A DNA stretch of 64,000 bases from Pyrinomonadaceae bacterium (GTDB lineage: Bacteria > Acidobacteriota > Blastocatellia > Pyrinomonadales > Pyrinomonadaceae). Below, one piece after another: positions 3,793-62,931 of the stretch. The first letter of the stretch is position 1; the number at the start of each line of letters is the position of its first letter. The stretch is taken from assembly GCA_041492185.1 (NCBI GenBank), contig JBGPWL010000010.1:10117-74116 (forward strand), given 5' to 3'. Below the pieces are notes generated by a model. It did no database searches and was not told the DNA's origin. It saw only the letters and a program-made list of their open reading frames with translations. Position numbers and translations under genes: made by a program.

Positions 3793-5565
3793 TTACGATC
3801 CGAGCTTGATCACTTCGGCGCGGAGTCGAGCGTGACGCTGCATCAACCGTAAATACGTTGATTCATCCGCTCCTGCCTTGGCGCGAATGATTCGCACTAC
3901 GTCGCGCTTCTCGTCCCCGTTCCAGCGATTGAGATTAGGAATTAGCGCAAGGACCGAAGACAGATCGCGCAGCGCGCACAATTCTGACTGCTTCCAATCA
4001 GTTGCCCGCAAACCAAGCGCGCGACTCACCGTCCTGACCGAATCGCTGCGAATACTCTCTGCGTCGCCGGAAAACTCTTTCGCCATGCGCCGCTGGACCG
4101 CGAGACCCAGATTGCGCACCTGGAAACGATCCCAATCACCAGACTGCCTTTCGGGCAACTCGAATATCAGGTGACCTTCGGCAAGCTGGCGAAGAACTCT
4201 TGCTGAGGTGCGATACGCGGGGCGCGTCGCAATTTTTTTCTCTTCGTCGAGTGCAAGCTTCAGTAATTTCGGCTTCGTCGGTCGGAAACCAAGTTTGCGA
4301 TAGAACCAAAACGCGCCCGACTCGATTCCTTCTTCGTTCTCGTAGCCGATCTGGTACGGGTCGATCGTGAAAACCGTTACGCCAAGCAGACGGCGCAGGA
4401 TCGCCAGCGTCCGCGCGTAGATCCACGCGGTTTCACCTTCGCGGAAGCTGTAATAAAAATTGAACCCGCTCTCCAGGCGCTCGAAGATCGAAAGGCCTTC
4501 GAAGTAGCCGACCGGCACGCCATTCTTGAAAATGATCGCGGCGTGATAAGCGCGTAACGGCAAGCGCTGGTTCGGCGGCACGCCCATAAAAAACAGCTCC
4601 ACGCCGCGGCCAATGCTGGCGCGCAAAACTCGAGCGGGATCTCCGTGAGTGAAGCCGTAAAGCTCGCGATAACGAACAGTCGAAGTTTCGCGTGTCATGT
4701 CGAGAATACGCTTGCCTTGACCACGTGAGAGTTTCTTCAGTGGTGGCGTTGATGCTCGCAACTCATTAACAAGTGAAACATCTTTGCGGCGAATGAGCGG
4801 CTGCCGGTGATAAAAAATATTTCGCACCGGCAATCGCATGCCCGTGCGCGTTGCACGAAAGTCGGGCGTCCAGCGCACATAGAGTTGCTGCGATTCGTAA
4901 AGCTCGGCCTTCCCTTTTTCCGTCCCTGGCAACAATGCGAACCTGTCGATCAACCACGGAAGATCGCGCGCCTGACGCCCCTTTGCTTCATGCAGCCACT
5001 TCAAATAAGGCACGTTCGCTTCAACCGCAGCGTCCTCTTCGAGCAAAGGCAAGAACCTGGGCCACGTTGCCGCCAGACGATTCTCATCTTCAAACCAGTC
5101 CCAGTCGAAAGACACTTGGGTCGGGTGCTTATCCAACAGCCAGCGGACGATGTTGTAGGTGAAAGTGTCGGTGACTGAAGTTCCTGTTACGCCGGAGACT
5201 TCCGGATCGTCAAACGGGGAGAGGTCTGCGTCTTGCGCGCGCAGCAAGCGGACTCGCTCCGCGAAAGACGAGAGTTGCGATTCCGCGAGGCGAACTATTT
5301 GTGCACTCTGCGGGTACGCGCGCAGAAAAAGGAGAATTTCGTGAAAGCGAACCAGCGATTCAGCATCTTTGATCTTCAGCTTTGACAGACGAGTGAGTGT
5401 TCGTTCGACGGTTTCGCGCCCGCTGCCGCCGAATTGGCGTTTGGCTTCGTCAAGTTGGTCAAGAAGCTGATTGATTGTATTGGATGGCACGTGTAGATGA
5501 TCTGTCCTGATGCTCTGTGCCTCTGTGTCTCTGTGGCAAATGCTTCGGGCACGACGACGACTCAC
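3793..5565 (-). CDS. conserved hypothetical protein with GNAT-like segment
   Basis: 590-aa ORF; ...GAFWFYRKLGFRP resembles the GNAT acyl-CoA binding motif; the first ~25 codons lie in a CACAGAG repeat, so the true start may be GTG at 5490. Confidence 0.6.
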   Translation of the reverse strand: MSRRRARSICHRDTEAQSIRTDHLHVPSNTINQLLDQLDEAKRQFGGSGRETVERTLTRLSKLKIKDAESLVRFHEILLFLRAYPQSAQIVRLAESQLSSFAERVRLLRAQDADLSPFDDPEVSGVTGTSVTDTFTYNIVRWLLDKHPTQVSFDWDWFEDENRLAATWPRFLPLLEEDAAVEANVPYLKWLHEAKGRQARDLPWLIDRFALLPGTEKGKAELYESQQLYVRWTPDFRATRTGMRLPVRNIFYHRQPLIRRKDVSLVNELRASTPPLKKLSRGQGKRILDMTRETSTVRYRELYGFTHGDPARVLRASIGRGVELFFMGVPPNQRLPLRAYHAAIIFKNGVPVGYFEGLSIFERLESGFNFYYSFREGETAWIYARTLAILRRLLGVTVFTIDPYQIGYENEEGIESGAFWFYRKLGFRPTKPKLLKLALDEEKKIATRPAYRTSARVLRQLAEGHLIFELPERQSGDWDRFQVRNLGLAVQRRMAKEFSGDAESIRSDSVRTVSRALGLRATDWKQSELCALRDLSSVLALIPNLNRWNGDEKRDVVRIIRAKAGADESTYLRLMQRHARLRAEVIKLGS

Positions 5566-6584
5566 AAATGCTTACGGAAAAACGTCGCAACCTTCCAGGC
5601 ATCGAGAGCTTTCCACGGCAACTCGCCCGTGGTGTAGTGTCCGCACGGCAACCACACGACATCGAGATCCAGACCCAGCTCTCTGACATGAGCGATCACT
5701 TCGCGGGTCAACTCAATTGGAAAAGTTAGATCGTAGCGCGCGGCAATAAAGCGCATGGGCCGTCGATCCATCTCGAGCAGGCGGGGAATGAACGGCACCG
5801 GACTGATTGGCCTCCAGAACTCGCGCAGCTCGTCAACCGTCAGATGATTTTCAATCCCGGCGCGCACGTGTTGCGTCGAGATTCCCTGCCAGACCACATC
5901 GGCGACAAAGCCGGATACATGATTGAAAACGCCGACATCGATCGCTGAGTCGTGAGAGAACGCGAGAAAGGCGATGCACGATCCAATGCTCGTGCCCATG
6001 ATGCCGATACGCTCGTAGCCGTTACGATGCAACCAGCTAACGGCGGCGCGTGTGTCGAGCACTGCCTGTCGCATTGATTGAATCGTGCGGCCAATGTTTG
6101 GACTGACGAGGTGATCCGCGCGCTCAAGCTCAGGCGGCCTACGCTCTTCGTGATACGGCATCGTCAGACGCAGCGCGGAAATGCCGAGAAAGTTAAATAT
6201 GCGACACGCTTCGACGTGGCTGTCAGGTTGGGCATTCCACTGCGGCACGACGACAATCGCAGAACGCGGACGCGAGCCGCGCTTCGATTTCGCGGGAAAG
6301 TAGCGAGCGCGCGCAATGTTGTTCTCCGGCGAAGGCGTCTTGATCGTGCTTGTCCACGTAAGCTGATTCGCTTCCAATTTGAAGTCGCTGATTTCAGGCA
6401 GCGCGTAGAAAGCATCGCTGTGCAACATTGCTGCTTCGGTGTGCTGACGCAGCGCATCGCGCGGGTCGTCCCCGTTGACGTGATCGCTAATGAAGGAGAG
6501 CCCCCATTCGAAGGGGCGCACGACGCGGTTATTGTCCCGTTCGTGATGGGCGCGTTCGCGCGCGTGCATGAATGCTTTCCACAA
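5562..6584 (-). CDS. alpha/beta hydrolase
   Basis: 340 aa; nucleophile elbow G-T-S-I-G (IGIMGTSIGSCIA); late His in WLPCGHY. Confidence 0.75.
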   Translation of the reverse strand: MWKAFMHARERAHHERDNNRVVRPFEWGLSFISDHVNGDDPRDALRQHTEAAMLHSDAFYALPEISDFKLEANQLTWTSTIKTPSPENNIARARYFPAKSKRGSRPRSAIVVVPQWNAQPDSHVEACRIFNFLGISALRLTMPYHEERRPPELERADHLVSPNIGRTIQSMRQAVLDTRAAVSWLHRNGYERIGIMGTSIGSCIAFLAFSHDSAIDVGVFNHVSGFVADVVWQGISTQHVRAGIENHLTVDELREFWRPISPVPFIPRLLEMDRRPMRFIAARYDLTFPIELTREVIAHVRELGLDLDVVWLPCGHYTTGELPWKALDAWKVATFFRKHL

Positions 6585-14276: not shown

Positions 14277-15509
14277 CTAACGATTCTGCGCAGTTGCCGG
14301 GGCCTCCGCCAGCAGCGGTTTGATCGCGGCTTCAAAATTCTCGCGCGATGTCTGTCCAATAAATTTCTGGCGAATACGGCCTTCGCGATCAAGCAAGTAA
14401 GTGACGGGCAAACCGGGACCATTACCAAACTTTTCGCCTATCTCTTCCGCGCCGCGGATAACGGTGTAATCCTGCTTCATGTCCTTTTGAAAACTGCGAA
14501 TAGCATCGGCAGTGTCCACGGGCGAGACCGAGGCGCCGACGACTGAAAAACCCTTCGCTCCAAGATCGCGCTGCATGTCATTGAATTCCGGAATCTCTGC
14601 CTGGCAAGGTTTACACCAGGTTGCCCAGAAATTCAGCAGCACCACTCGCCCCTTGAGCGACGCCAGATGAAACGACTGGCCATCGAGTGTTTGAAATTCA
14701 ACTTCAGGCGGAACCGGAAAATTGTTGTTCGCGGGAGGAGCGCTCGCGCTCACGGGCTGCTTAACTTTCAAGAAACCTTCCAGGTTCGGCAACATCGCGG
14801 CCAATCTTGAGCTTGCCAATAAAGTTGAGTAGCCGCTGGCAATCAACAGTCCGATCAAAATTAGAACGACGCCGGAAACGACCTCAACTTTGTGCAGATG
14901 TTTGCGAAACTTCGAATAGAAACCAAGGAACTTATTAATTCCGAGACCGGTAATGAGAAAAGGAACTGCGAGTCCAGCCGAATAAAACGTCGCCAGCACC
15001 GTACCCCCCTTCCAACCGCCGCTCGTTGCTGCCAACGCCATGATCCCTCCGAGGATTGGGCCAATGCAGGGAGTCCAGCCTGCGGCAAACGCGATGCCTA
15101 ACGTCAGCGACCCGAGCACGCCGCGCGGTTTCTCATTCGAAAACTGCCGCGTGTCTTTATATAAGTATTTGATCTTCAGTAGCCCGATCAGATGCAGTCC
15201 AAAAACTATGATGACCAGGCCGCCGGCAATTCGAATCCAGCGGTTGCTAAGAATCGATGAACCAACCAGACCAGCCGTTGCGCCCAGCGCGATAAAGATC
15301 ACCGACAGACCGATATTGAAGGCAATCGAGTTAATGACCACCGCGCGCATGGCAGTACTGCGGGAGGCGCCATCGCCCTTCAGGTGATCGATGCTGACTC
15401 CCGACATCAGAGAGAGATAGCCGGGAACCAAAGGCAGCACACACGGCGACAAAAAAGATAGCAGCCCGCCGGCAAAAGCAATCAGAATGTTGACCAAAGA
15501 TATTTGCAT
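14277..15509 (-). CDS. cytochrome c biogenesis CcdA/DsbD-type membrane domain fused to TlpA-like thioredoxin
   Basis: 410 aa; N-terminal multi-TM with LSPCVLPLVPGY and TPCIGPILG motifs; C-terminal FWATWCKPCQAE. Confidence 0.85.
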   Translation of the reverse strand: MQISLVNILIAFAGGLLSFLSPCVLPLVPGYLSLMSGVSIDHLKGDGASRSTAMRAVVINSIAFNIGLSVIFIALGATAGLVGSSILSNRWIRIAGGLVIIVFGLHLIGLLKIKYLYKDTRQFSNEKPRGVLGSLTLGIAFAAGWTPCIGPILGGIMALAATSGGWKGGTVLATFYSAGLAVPFLITGLGINKFLGFYSKFRKHLHKVEVVSGVVLILIGLLIASGYSTLLASSRLAAMLPNLEGFLKVKQPVSASAPPANNNFPVPPEVEFQTLDGQSFHLASLKGRVVLLNFWATWCKPCQAEIPEFNDMQRDLGAKGFSVVGASVSPVDTADAIRSFQKDMKQDYTVIRGAEEIGEKFGNGPGLPVTYLLDREGRIRQKFIGQTSRENFEAAIKPLLAEAPATAQNR

Positions 15510-19696: not shown

Positions 19697-19707
19697 ATTC
19701 AGAATGG

Positions 19708-19810
19708 TCAGTTGTCAGTTGTCAGTTGAAGTCTTATGCTTGGAACGCGTTGGATCGAAAGAGCACTAAATGAAGTTTTCTGCCTACTGCTCACTGCTTA
19801 CTGCCTACTG
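19708..19810. repeat. two heptamer tandem arrays (CAGTTGT x3; CTGCYTA x4) in the thiO-icd divergent region
   Basis: tcagttgtcagttgtcagttga (19708..19729) and ctgcctactgctcactgcttactgcctactg (19780..19810); CTGCCTA units recur at 12421..12453. Confidence 0.6.
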
Positions 19811-48411: not shown

Positions 48412-48418
48412 ATACCAA

Positions 48419-48513
48419 GGCAAAAGTAAAAAGGTAAAAGGCAAAAAGGAAGGGCGAATCAATCAACGGGCCGTTGGTTGTCGCCCTTCTCACTTTTCCT
48501 TTCTACTTTTGCC
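48419..48513 (+). terminator. long imperfect hairpin just after the crp paralog 1 stop
   Basis: Arms ggcaaaagta...gaagggcga / tcgcccttc...tacttttgcc built from A-rich heptamer-like units; inner hairpin CAACGG-GC-CGTTG. Confidence 0.45.
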
Positions 48514-60107: not shown

Positions 60108-60881
60108 ATGGAACTTCAACATATCAAGTTCGAGATCGACGATCGCGTGGCGCGCATCACTCTCGCTCGGCCGCCGCTTAATATCCTGAACATCGAGATG
60201 ATGCAGGAGATTGGATTGGCGCTCGACGATCTCGTCAGCCATCGCGAAGTGGTGGCGATCGTTTTCGACGCCCCACCGGATGCGCGCGCCTTCAGCGCCG
60301 GCGTCGCGGTCGAAGAGCACGTTGAGGAAACAATCTATCAGATGCTCGATTCGTTCCACGCCATCTTTCGCACCTTGACGCAACTCGCAAAGCCGACGAT
60401 TGCCGTGGTTGATGGCGCAGCGCTGGGTGGCGGATGCGAACTGGTGGCGGGCTGCGATATTGTCATCGCGAGCGATCGCGCGCGGTTCGGCCAACCAGAG
60501 ATCAAGCTCGGCGTGTTTCCGCCGGTGGCTTGCGTGCTGTTGCCACTGATCATCGGCGACAAACGCGCGCGCGAACTCGTGTTGACTGGTGAGATGATTG
60601 ACGCTCCTGAAGCCGCGCGTCTTGGCCTGGTGAATTACGTCGTGCAGGCCGACCGTTTGCAGCAAAAGACGGAAGAGATACTATCGAAGCTGCGCGAGTT
60701 CTCCGGCGTCGCGTTGGAAGCAACTCGGCGCGCGCTCGACCTGGGCCGCGGGCGTTCGCTCGATAGCGTGCTGGCCGAAATAGAGGACATGTATCTGAAC
60801 GAGCTGATGAAGACCGAAGATGCCAACGAAGGCATTAAGTCGTTTATGGAAAAGCGAAAGCCGGCGTGGCGGAACCGGTAA
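60108..60881 (+). CDS. enoyl-CoA hydratase/isomerase family protein
   Basis: 257 aa; crotonase motifs FSAGVAVEE and VDGAALGGGCELVAGCDI. Confidence 0.85.
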   Translation: MELQHIKFEIDDRVARITLARPPLNILNIEMMQEIGLALDDLVSHREVVAIVFDAPPDARAFSAGVAVEEHVEETIYQMLDSFHAIFRTLTQLAKPTIAVVDGAALGGGCELVAGCDIVIASDRARFGQPEIKLGVFPPVACVLLPLIIGDKRARELVLTGEMIDAPEAARLGLVNYVVQADRLQQKTEEILSKLREFSGVALEATRRALDLGRGRSLDSVLAEIEDMYLNELMKTEDANEGIKSFMEKRKPAWRNR

Positions 60882-60883
60882 AA

Positions 60884-61364
60884 TTTTCCATTTATCATTT
60901 GACATTTTTCATTTGTCATTTGAAGGCACGACACCCCGCTTGTATGGAAAAAGTAGCAGTAGCGCGAGTCGCTCAATCGCAAGCAGACGAACTTGAGGAA
61001 CGCTTGATTGACTTTGCAGTACGCATCGTCAAGCTTTCGGCCGGTCTGCCGAAAAATCCCGCCGGGAAGCATGTCGCTGGACAGGTTTTGCGATCCGGGA
61101 CGTCTCCCGCGCCGAATTATGGCGAAGCGAGAGGAGCTGAAAGCCATGCCGATTTCGTTCACAAGCTGCGTATCGTTCTTAAGGAGTTGAATGAGACATC
61201 TATCTGGCTGCGAGTAATTGAACGCAGTCAGATTCTAAAGAAGGAACTCCTTGCGGACATTATTGAGGAAAACCGGGAACTGTGCAGGATTTTCATTGCA
61301 TCACTAAAAACCGCTCGTGCTGGAAAAAATGATAAATGAGAAATGTCAAATGACAAATGGAAAA
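60884..61364 (+). mobile_element. inverted-repeat-flanked four-helix-bundle gene cassette
   Basis: Left arm 60884..60922 and right arm 61327..61364 are reverse complements (35/38 by hand); both are made of NCATTTN heptamers. Confidence 0.55.
60944..61339 (+). CDS. four-helix-bundle protein (23S rRNA IVS protein / Avd-like family)
   Basis: ORF 60866.. trimmed to ATG 60944; ...RLIDFAVRIVKL...GKHVAGQVLRSGTSPAPNYGEA...FVHKLRIVLKELNETSIWLRV... hallmark of the TIGR02436-type family. Confidence 0.8.
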   Translation: MEKVAVARVAQSQADELEERLIDFAVRIVKLSAGLPKNPAGKHVAGQVLRSGTSPAPNYGEARGAESHADFVHKLRIVLKELNETSIWLRVIERSQILKKELLADIIEENRELCRIFIASLKTARAGKNDK

Positions 61365-62252
61365 TGGCTTCAGTCCTGGAGCCGTCGTCTCTTTGTCCTG
61401 CTCGTCGCGCTCGCGCTCCTCGTTCCCGCATTCGGCGTACTGGCCCAAAGGCGAAAGCAAAGCGGATCGCATCCGAGCCGCCCGCGTGAAACTCTAACCG
61501 TCGAAGAGCGCGAACTAGTCGAGGAAGCGATTGACGTTGTCTGTTCCGAAAGAGCGCGCGACGACAAAGGCAGCGCGCCCATTGACGATATGCAGAAGCG
61601 CCCGTCGCTGCCGTTGCGCGCCCCCGAAGTAATCGCGGGCGCAGAGCGCGCCCAACGCCTTCTGGGTCCGGCCAAGAGCCTTGTCATAGTCGCGCTGCGC
61701 CGTCTCTCGGATGAATACAAAATCAGCAGCGACCGGTATCACGCCGCAAGAATCAGCCGGGCGATCGCGCGCGTGCAGGCCGTCAATCGTGTCAGGCCGG
61801 ACGTTGAAGCGCGCGATAACGCGTCTGTCTATCTCAAGAGCCCGCACGCGATCACCTTCGGCACAATTTTTCTGGCGGGTCTGCCTTCCGACGAAGGGAT
61901 GCTCAGCGTGCTGGCGCATGAATTGGTCCACATCGCCGATGGCGACACGGACACTTTGCGACGGCTGTTTCAGGCCGTCGGTAATCGCGCTTCAAGGTTG
62001 ACCGGGTTGCGCATACGCGACCAACGCGCCGAGGAATTGACCTGCGATCTGGTGGGCGAAGTAGCCGCGCAGTCGCTCATTTCCAGCACGCCTAACTATG
62101 AACCGGTGCCGCGGCGACTGGCGCGATCCCTCGAACACAATTGCGTGGACGAAGACGAAGCCGACGAGGATCATCTTTCCCCGCGAAACACCATTCGCGC
62201 GCTGCTGGCTCTCGATCCCGCGCTCAGACGGGGGCTGGTTTACGGCAAGTAG
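61350..62252 (+). CDS. putative secreted zinc metalloprotease (HExxH)
   Basis: ORF 61317..; signal-like N-terminus; LAHELVHIADGD motif; all candidate ATGs (61317/61329/61350) lie inside the right inverted repeat of the upstream cassette. Confidence 0.55.
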   Translation: MTNGKWLQSWSRRLFVLLVALALLVPAFGVLAQRRKQSGSHPSRPRETLTVEERELVEEAIDVVCSERARDDKGSAPIDDMQKRPSLPLRAPEVIAGAERAQRLLGPAKSLVIVALRRLSDEYKISSDRYHAARISRAIARVQAVNRVRPDVEARDNASVYLKSPHAITFGTIFLAGLPSDEGMLSVLAHELVHIADGDTDTLRRLFQAVGNRASRLTGLRIRDQRAEELTCDLVGEVAAQSLISSTPNYEPVPRRLARSLEHNCVDEDEADEDHLSPRNTIRALLALDPALRRGLVYGK

Positions 62253-62268: not shown

Positions 62269-62931
62269 CTAGTAGTATTCATTGGACTCTGCGCAAAGTA
62301 CATCCGCCTCTTCCTTCGCGAGGTGATGTTGCAGAGAAGTGTATAGACTTGAATCGCCTTGCTCCCACTTCCGCGCTATCGCGTAGGCACAGTAGTCTGC
62401 CACCTGGAGCCAGAGATTCGACGCGCTTGCGTGATGATAAACGTGAAAGGGGAATCCGTCGGGAAGTTCGGCCCGGCACGCGATCTTTATTGCCTTCTCA
62501 GTCAATTCCCGGTTGCACTGCCCCGGAAAGCGATCCGTATAAACCAGAAGATTGTGAGCATGCTCCCTGATTGGACCTCGTAACACTAAGCTCAAAGGCA
62601 TTGTTGCGAATCTGGAGTAGAAACTGCCCAAATGCTCGCGATCCTTAGGGGGCACCTTGTTCTTCTGCACCACCACGGCAGCAAATTTCCAGTCTGGGTA
62701 TGAGAGTATCTTGCTGATAACGAGTTGGCGAATGCGCCCATGATCACTGCTCGCGTGGAACTTCTCGATGTTTGAACCTTGCTTCAGCAGTCGAAACCTG
62801 AGCAATTGGAGTTGGATCGCTAAGGGTAGCGGATTGTATGTCCAGACAGCAGCGAACAAGTAGTATCGACTTCCGCGCGGCGAAAAATTGAGATCGCCCG
62901 ACTCATCTAGGTGAAGATGAAGAGTGCTCAT
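62269..62931 (-). CDS. DUF3800 domain protein
   Basis: 220 aa; N-terminal HLDESGD motif characteristic of DUF3800. Confidence 0.7.
   Translation of the reverse strand: MSTLHLHLDESGDLNFSPRGSRYYLFAAVWTYNPLPLAIQLQLLRFRLLKQGSNIEKFHASSDHGRIRQLVISKILSYPDWKFAAVVVQKNKVPPKDREHLGSFYSRFATMPLSLVLRGPIREHAHNLLVYTDRFPGQCNRELTEKAIKIACRAELPDGFPFHVYHHASASNLWLQVADYCAYAIARKWEQGDSSLYTSLQHHLAKEEADVLCAESNEYY

Follow-up and report, generated by a model that had tools for sequence, protein, structure and literature searches.

A probable intervening-sequence-type hairpin cassette: a four-helix-bundle protein gene between heptamer arms at an operon junction of a Pyrinomonadaceae bacterium

The 64,000-nt window analysed here belongs to contig C109 of the genome of a Pyrinomonadaceae bacterium (G000). 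Its positions 60883–61365 probably form a hairpin cassette of the intervening-sequence (IVS) type, and this assessment includes the mechanism proposed below. In the cassette, a promoter-less gene for a four-helix-bundle (4HB) protein lies in the loop between inverted arms of tandem heptamers, in sense orientation, between two co-directional host genes that encode an enoyl-CoA hydratase and a secreted HExxH protein. The cassette is a species-specific insertion at this junction. The gene and the arms travel jointly between unrelated loci and bacterial families, and purifying selection maintains the 4HB protein. Conservation of the arm sequence far exceeds neutral expectation, and this sequence co-varies with the protein clade. 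A prediction made earlier from the letters of the window (the original prediction) had described the gene as a self-contained insertion cassette. This description is supported by the repeat-flanked paralogs of the gene, by its presence or absence at the site and by the recurrence of the arrangement across phyla.

Architecture of the cassette and its paralogs in the genome

The cassette consists of the following features.

60883–60921, + strand: left arm, 39 nt, approximately 5.5 tandem CATTTNN heptamers, 21% G+C
60922–60943, + strand: leader or spacer from the left arm to the ATG of the 4HB gene, 22 nt
60944–61339, + strand: 4HB gene, 131 aa, PF05635/TIGR02436 (23S rRNA IVS protein family), by profile matches
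61327–61365, + strand: right arm, 39 nt, tandem NNAAATG heptamers, pairing with the left arm at 36/39

The repeat search showed that this inverted repeat is the dominant one at the locus. The two arms are 92% complementary (36/39) and 405 nt apart, and the whole element measures 483 nt. The left arm reads ATTTTC CATTTAT CATTTGA CATTTTT CATTTGT CATTT, and the period scan gave 7 as its best period, in agreement with the approximately five tandem heptamers predicted for each arm. The inverted repeat of the original prediction is thus real, but its coordinates (60884–60922 and 61327–61364, 35/38) were off by 1 nt. The left arm was also rightly placed close behind the hydratase stop codon; a single spacer base, and not 3 nt, separates the TAA (60879–60881) from the arm. 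The stop codon of the 4HB gene (TGA, 61337–61339) lies within the right arm. In the predicted RNA fold, the arms close a stem of approximately 38 bp in both the minimum free energy and the centroid structure, with a z-score of −5.8, and 0/100 shuffles were as stable.

The leader (60922–60943) showed no obvious Shine-Dalgarno sequence on reading and could not be aligned with the leaders of close homologs. The promoter scan found no promoter-like site on the + strand of the cassette. No transposase is encoded in the cassette, in which the 4HB protein is the sole open reading frame (ORF) and PF05635 the sole Pfam match. A target-site duplication was not visible, the junctions of the relatives being too diverged or too occupied by hairpins to fix the exact ends.

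The 4HB protein exceeded the cut-offs of both family profiles, with 55.8 bits for PF05635 (cut-off 33.8) and 80 bits for TIGR02436 (cut-off 24). The family assignment made earlier (IVS protein and Avd) is therefore upheld, Avd being homologous to PF05635 (PMC10053308). Residues 17–125 align to the solved structure PDB 2RLD (E 2e-18), an entry with five chains. The structure paper on Xcc0516, cited in PMC3936711, names an assembly of five four-helix bundles in its title. The protein has the family motif in the form Q-x-x-R-S-x-x-S-x-x-x-N-x-x-E, and its residues GQVLRSGTSPAPNYGE match the family motif GxxRxxxSxxxNxxE of PMC3936711. The Q, S and E of the motif are invariant across the six paralogs of the genome. 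The G+C content of the 4HB gene is 49% and its third-codon-position G+C (GC3) is 46%, against 59–61% and 68–72% in the neighbour genes; all six paralogs have a G+C content of 47–53%.

The genome assembly (4.7 Mb, 55.6% G+C, 160 contigs) is 96% complete. A six-frame profile search detected six PF05635 genes, and 0/6 are located in an rRNA gene, judged by flanking sequence. By eye, 6/6 lie between inverted 7-nt tandem arrays, each with a different unit: CATTTGT at the window copy and GCAGTGG, CCTGCCT, GCAAAGG, GTAAAAA and GAGATCT at the others. The check proposed earlier, whether the other 4HB genes are also flanked by inverted repeats, was therefore positive for every other copy in the genome.

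The automatic ORF-flank test used a single criterion and windows that let the arms overlap the ORF ends. Matching period-7 inverted flanks were found at 12/3683 ORFs, and 4 of these 12 are 4HB genes (Fisher p ~1e-9). The remaining 8/3677 are housekeeping genes (lpxA, mreC, trigger factor and sppA among them), and each of these lies between two separate hairpins. Two 4HB genes fell short of the criterion through ORF-boundary or threshold effects only. The left arm of the copy on contig C50 is weak and scored only 7.

Tandem Repeats Finder showed that period 7 dominates the tandem repeats of the genome above modest scores. Approximately 430–600 period-7 arrays were counted, depending on the filter, in roughly a dozen families, and approximately 95 inverted array pairs have loops <100 nt. 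Each heptamer family linked to a 4HB gene is also present as gene-less arrays (6 to ~60 per family), and in 5 of the 7 largest families a single member bears a 4HB gene. The CATTTNN family comprises ~22 hairpins, nearly all with the polarity CATTT...AAATG and with the conserved outer ends ATTTTCCATTTGTCATTT / AAATGACAAATGGAAAAT; several of them repeat the full 39-nt arm pattern of the cassette. The left-arm terminus ATTTTCCATTTGTCATTT is shared by ~20 gene-less hairpins here and by the close homolog cassettes of other genomes. The loops of these hairpins (23–103 nt) are mutually unrelated by inspection. The window copy is the only gene-bearing one, and no member of the CATTTNN family carries a gene other than the 4HB gene. 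The gene-less hairpins of the genome start at a median of 8 nt past the facing stop codon, and the window cassette is likewise close to its own.

Arrays or hairpins of other heptamer families also occur in the window at 2143–2278, 19707–19810 and 48417–48449 (contig C109 12259–12394, 29823–29926 and 58533–58565). The ribosomal-protein operons of contig C10 have heptamer arrays in many intergenic gaps (e.g., 5172–6362 and 14810–15386), and rpsK and rplP each lie between same-family arrays. In the paralog at C83:14506–15064 (L005), a GAGATCT-type array is in frame in its own ORF (DLKFEISDLKS), and a C-terminal extension of 60 aa comes after it; the left arm of this paralog adjoins a separate AAGGCAA hairpin.

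The junction, the homologs and armed loci in other genomes

The two host genes of the cassette are as follows.

60108–60881, + strand: enoyl-CoA hydratase (upstream host gene), PF00378, E 9e-51
61350–62252, + strand (likely start 61350, or 61329): secreted HExxH protein, putative metalloprotease (downstream host gene), from the ORF list

The HExxH protein had no Pfam match and only a weak HtpX match, and a signal-peptide-like N-terminus follows the ATG at 61350. The right arm had been predicted to hold all the candidate start codons of this gene. This is correct for the in-frame ATGs at 61329 and 61350, but the gene also has an in-frame GTG at 61317, 10 nt away from the arm. Downstream, a DUF3800 gene (PF12686, E 8e-10) occupies 62269–62931 of the window on the - strand, convergent with the HExxH gene.

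Orthologs of the HExxH gene were found in 14 relatives of the same family, with the hydratase gene adjacent in 13. At the hydratase–HExxH junction, 0/13 of these relatives have the 4HB gene or a remnant of it at E values up to 10 with the six paralogs as queries, and the gene is therefore species-specific at this site. The junction is seldom bare. It carries a GGGGAGA-type hairpin in G001, AAGGATG arms in G016 and other heptamer hairpins in G010 and G024; the junction of G005 has no hairpin. In the same-genus relative G004, the same CATTTNN arms are present in register (34/41 and 39/41 identical), with the same start and end points, around a loop of 87 nt. This loop has no similarity to the 4HB gene (best local alignment score 16, shuffle mean 17.1). 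The reading of the G004 loop as a deletion remnant of the 4HB gene is unsupported, the score being below the shuffle mean. The CATTTNN arms at this junction are thus either older than the species or were acquired twice.

Two further junctions have a structure of their own. In G003 (L011:1086–1485), CAGGAGG-type arms enclose a 345-nt loop without a 4HB gene, and the loop holds a second, nested inverted repeat with 55-nt arms (1163–1217 / 1276–1330). In G001 (L008), the HExxH ORF is open through the GGGGAGA hairpin, with an in-frame ATG in the left arm. The G001 hairpin may be translated as an N-terminal extension, or else the ORF call may be inflated.

The closest homologs of the window protein are 69–80% identical to it and have a patchy distribution: G001 and G003 in the same genus, G010 in another genus, and G033, G037 and G038 in other families of the class. 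They are situated at unrelated loci, all with CATTTNN arms and the same termini. This indicates that the gene and the arms usually move or persist together. Among the close homolog copies, synonymous differences are saturated (pS 0.67–0.90), pN is 0.13–0.24 and dN/dS is <0.1, and the 4HB protein is therefore under purifying selection. The heptamer and the termini are the same despite the saturated synonymous sites, so the arms are conserved in sequence and not just in pairing potential. The complementarity of arms from the same copy was 0.67, compared with 0.52 for arms of different copies (p = 0.03).

Four close homolog cassettes (L025, L031, L050 and L052, from G033, G037 and G038) are located inside tyrosine-recombinase genes resembling integron integrases. 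The N-terminal (...TYxDWIKRFI...) and C-terminal (...IYTHVLxxGGxGVRSP...) parts of the recombinase flank the arms, the centre is missing, and the left breakpoints vary. Such integrase-like genes are interrupted by the cassette and are not partners of it. An integron attC cassette was rejected for the window element, because the arms are on both sides of the ORF and no integrase is nearby.

G000, G003 and G004 all have the GTAAAAA-armed paralog of contig C15 at one and the same junction, and G001 has it there as a pseudogene. In G002 and G005, of the same genus, this junction is short (~45 nt) and has neither arms nor gene; these are the clean empty junctions for which the original prediction advised a search. 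In other genera, unrelated heptamer hairpins occupy the junction. The C15-type 4HB proteins are 72–87% identical to the G000 copy and the flanking protein is 78–81% identical, and this similar divergence shows that an inserted cassette can persist vertically for long. At C15:4400–4450 and in the orthologs L142–L144, the left arm gives the upstream gene its last 3–4 codons and its stop (...AEVKRKK*), and the ORF upstream of the C15-type cassette in G001 reads on through the arm. The arms therefore rewrite the ends of neighbouring genes. Another 4HB copy, adjacent to a tRNA gene, is common to G004 and G017.

A scan for related loci, with one genome per species and a single consensus-like paralog as the query, gave 80 loci from Acidobacteriota, Chloroflexota, Planctomycetota, Verrucomicrobiota, Clostridia, Spirochaetes, Chlorobium, Desulfobaccales, Chromatiaceae, Acidimicrobiia and Hydrogenedentota. 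When these were pooled with the loci of the relatives, inverted arms with a best period of 7 were found at 96/111 loci in at least 10 phyla, in a sample biased to relatives of armed genes. The armed loci have a median arm of 32 nt (4–5 units) and a median inter-arm distance of 428 nt. Both neighbours are co-directional with the 4HB gene in 65/96 loci and both are antisense in 6. The distance between heptamers increased with the distance between proteins, from 1.1 mismatches at <30% divergence to 3.5 at >60% (Mantel r = 0.58, p = 0.001). Individual loci are listed below.

Nostoc punctiforme pNPUN01: heptamer CAGGAGT
Calothrix brevissima plasmid: heptamer GGGTGTA
Anabaena sp. 90: heptamer CAGGTGA, between cas6 and cas4
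Riemerella anatipestifer plasmid: heptamer AAGGTTC, between two suf genes
Azospirillum lipoferum AZO_p2: heptamer GGACAGA, in 23S rRNA helix 45, judged by flanking sequence
Gemmatirosa kalamazoonensis plasmid 1 (L137), NZ_CP007129.1:1007201-1008336: inverted 8-nt units (GGGCAGGA), not 7

Plasmids gamma and alpha of Nostoc sp. PCC 7120 (L133 and L134) carry identical 4HB genes with only the right-hand CTTCTGC/CCTCTGC array left. The left side of the plasmid gamma copy borders directly on an ISL3 transposase gene.

Proposed mechanism and alternative explanations

We propose that transcription reads through from the hydratase gene into the cassette. The arms would pair in the RNA to form a stem of approximately 38 bp, and RNase III, a gene for which is encoded in the genome, may cut this stem as has been shown for the 23S rRNA IVS of Coxiella. 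Such a cut would part the cassette RNA from the messages of the host genes, releasing the 4HB message and exposing the start codon of the downstream gene within the right arm. The 4HB protein, a pentamer in solved relatives, may recognise the approximately five heptamers of its own arms. Such recognition would explain both the periodicity of the arms and the co-variation of protein and repeat. Binding of the protein to its own arrays is suggested by the 7-nt period, the 4–5 units per arm, the pentameric relatives and the co-variation. Movement of the cassette is presumably rare. It would depend on host functions or on recombination between same-family hairpins, because no recombinase is encoded, and the arms-only allele of G004 makes the recombination route plausible.

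We further speculate, with clear reservation, that PF05635 pentamers are sequence-specific partners of heptamer arrays. Each subfamily would have its own heptamer, in RNA or DNA, would travel in an inverted pair of it, and would maintain or spread gene-less hairpins in the manner of REP-associated tyrosine transposases (RAYTs) and REPINs, the hairpin doublets of repetitive extragenic palindromes (REPs). This link between the cassette and the heptamer hairpin families found throughout the genome is what makes the case interesting, and it is unproven.

Several observations weigh against the interpretation as an IVS-type cassette. Neither a recombinase, a target-site duplication nor recent movement was seen for the cassette, and no second copy of it was found in the genome. 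Pseudogenised 4HB copies are common, and the IVS protein of Coxiella is apparently not made in vivo (PMC4990558). The arms may predate the gene at this site, given that in G004 they enclose an unrelated loop of 87 nt. The sample of 111 loci is biased, as stated above. Abundant heptamer families without a cognate 4HB gene exist in the genome, namely AAGGATG (52 arrays), AATYCGC (27) and AAACTCG (20). When CATTTNN array counts were compared with the cognate 4HB subfamily across 41 genomes, they followed the presence of the gene ambiguously. All seven genomes with a close homolog have CATTTNN arrays, with only 2 pattern matches in G038, which has three copies of the gene. CATTTNN arrays without a close homolog were found in G004, G022, G023 and G031; in G022 and G023, more distant 4HB genes adjoin or are flanked by related CATTTAN arrays.

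The order of events at the site could also have been the reverse, a possibility that we take seriously but consider improbable. A gene-less CATTTNN hairpin, one among hundreds of intergenic heptamer hairpins situated close behind stop codons, would have stood at the junction first. Its loop would then have received the 4HB gene from a gene-bearing hairpin of the same family, through homologous recombination or gene conversion with the two 39-nt arms as homology, so that the hairpin families are landing pads and the cassette is not self-mobile. The register of the arms in G004 around an unrelated loop fits this order, as do the ~20 gene-less hairpins of the genome with the 39-nt arm pattern of the cassette, with their unrelated loops of 23–103 nt and their equally close position behind stop codons (median 8 nt). 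Moreover, two junctions, the hydratase–HExxH junction and that of C15, bear different hairpin families in different genera. However, no donor copy of the 4HB gene exists elsewhere in the genome, and the close homologs in other families have the same arms at unrelated loci. The relative closest by flanking-protein identity, G001, has a different hairpin at the site, which therefore does not have a simple history. It is much less probable still that the gene has been inherited vertically, as an accessory or regulatory gene whose hairpin is autoregulatory, and that it was ancestral at the junction and lost independently in every sampled relative. The C15 paralog, which is found in four species of the genus and diverges about as the host genes do, shows that vertical inheritance occurs in this family; the tRNA-adjacent copy common to G004 and G017 and the strong purifying selection on the protein agree with it. 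The junction of the window cassette tells otherwise: 13 relatives have no gene or remnant there, the G+C content and GC3 of the gene are far under those of its neighbours, and its closest homologs belong to other families of the class and occupy unrelated loci.

Two other explanations deserve practically no credence. If the 4HB gene were the Avd subunit of a diversity-generating retroelement (DGR), the repeats would be part of that element, and the homology of PF05635 to Avd (PMC10053308) is in its favour. A reverse transcriptase nearby had been named as a point to check, but no match to PF00078 was found anywhere in the 96%-complete genome, and with no reverse transcriptase in the genome a DGR role is excluded. 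The neighbours are the hydratase, the HExxH protein and the DUF3800 protein, and no long direct repeats were found in 60500–61800 besides the heptamer arrays, nor a template/variable pair near the gene. The inverted repeat could scarcely be a chance or generic structure either, such as a terminator or simple sequence made by slippage. Heptamer arrays are indeed very common in this genome (~430–600), and eight housekeeping genes also lie between same-family arrays. Yet matching arrays occur at 4/6 4HB genes (6/6 by eye) versus 8/3677 other ORFs (p ~1e-9), and 96/111 loci across phyla are armed. The polarity of the arms is fixed and their termini are conserved. No T-run is present in the arms, and the scan for terminators did no better on them than on shuffles; together with the 405-nt loop and the recurrence around this protein family across phyla, this disposes of the mere terminator that the original prediction had allowed for. 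The IVS-type cassette remains the interpretation that we favour.

Significance and comparison with known systems

The cassette bears on two puzzles, the purpose of the conserved ORF in 23S rRNA IVSs (open since 1993) and the origin of the intergenic heptamer repeats in cyanobacteria, xanthomonads, Beggiatoaceae and, here, acidobacteria (open since 1990). The IVS-type module is not bound to rRNA: it occurs at ordinary operon junctions and has the orientation of its host genes. Each paralog is paired with its own heptamer family, which is itself present in many gene-less copies. The arms are conserved alongside the protein despite saturated synonymous sites. A model of protein–repeat recognition is now directly testable. 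If the partnership of protein and array is true, rRNA IVSs, operon-junction cassettes and short tandemly repeated repetitive (STRR)-type sequences would be three faces of one widespread system. Neighbouring genes take stop codons, C-terminal residues or start codons from the arms, which also inflate ORF calls, so that annotation pipelines misread such junctions. The 4HB genes in cas, suf or restriction-modification operons may be passengers rather than components.

The cassette resembles insertion sequences and miniature inverted-repeat transposable elements in its terminal inverted repeats, conserved outer ends, many gene-less copies beside one gene-bearing copy, and insertion polymorphism. 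It differs from them in having no transposase and in the unrelated internal sequences of its copies; no target-site duplication was detected.

RAYTs are flanked by inverted copies of their own REP family. The RAYT/REPIN system and the cassette share a single-copy gene between inverted short repeats, the dispersal of the repeat throughout the genome as hairpin doublets, and the pairing of different paralogs with different repeat families. Unlike a RAYT, the 4HB protein does not belong to the HUH/Y1 enzymes and contains no known catalytic domain; its only Pfam match is PF05635. The repeats here are periodic heptamer arrays with unrelated loops, and several abundant families have no cognate gene.

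Avd is the pentameric nucleic-acid-binding partner of the DGR reverse transcriptase. The Avd of Bordetella phage BPP-1 has a homologous four-helix-bundle fold (PMC10053308). The present genome differs in having no PF00078 match, and no template/variable repeats were seen near the gene. To our knowledge, Avd genes have not been described as having heptamer arms.

Intergenic heptamer repeats have been described as STRR sequences in cyanobacteria, as inverted GGGAATC pairs in Xanthomonas (PMC4692102) and as TAACTGA repeats in Beggiatoaceae and cyanobacteria (PMC4679880). As here, they are abundant 7-nt arrays, often in hairpin-capable convergent pairs near gene ends. These repeats occur in phyla rich in 4HB genes, and the CAGTNGN-type heptamers of one 4HB subfamily resemble the STRR and TAACTGA units. 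PMC4692102 and PMC4679880 report no 4HB/IVS protein and no gene within the repeat pairs, whereas several families here have one gene-carrying member. A 2013 listing of PF05635 genes within cas loci does not mention arms (PMC3936711). Our literature search for the protein family together with heptamer arms found only the Coxiella IVS paper, and no paper joining the IVS, cas-locus and heptamer-repeat observations was found.

That paper describes an IVS of 428 nt in 23S helix 45 of Coxiella burnetii, which encodes the S23p protein of the PF05635/TIGR02436 family and is seen by the authors as horizontally acquired (PMC4990558). Its terminal inverted repeats, with 3–4 GACAGAT heptamers, form a 28-bp stem in which RNase III cuts (PMC4990558). 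The loops of the IVSs of Coxiella and Leptospira (PMC4990558; Ralph & McClelland 1993 cited there) encode the same protein family as the cassette. The cassette measures 483 nt versus 428–444 nt for rRNA IVSs. Its stem of 39 bp, compared with 28 bp in Coxiella, is likewise made from terminal inverted repeats, with CATTTNN in place of GACAGAT heptamers. The IVSs and the cassette both have a G+C content under that of the host and a patchy distribution, and horizontal transfer has been proposed for both. Excision by RNase III has been shown for rRNA IVSs and would apply by analogy to the cassette. Published work on IVSs makes no tie to genome-wide gene-less heptamer hairpins or to the co-variation of protein and heptamer. 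An IVS is located in helix 9, 25 or 45 of the 23S rRNA, whereas the cassette lies between two protein-coding genes; the Azospirillum copy in helix 45 has an architecture like that of the window cassette. The nearest known kind of element is therefore the ORF-bearing 23S rRNA IVS, and the window copy is a variant of it outside rRNA.

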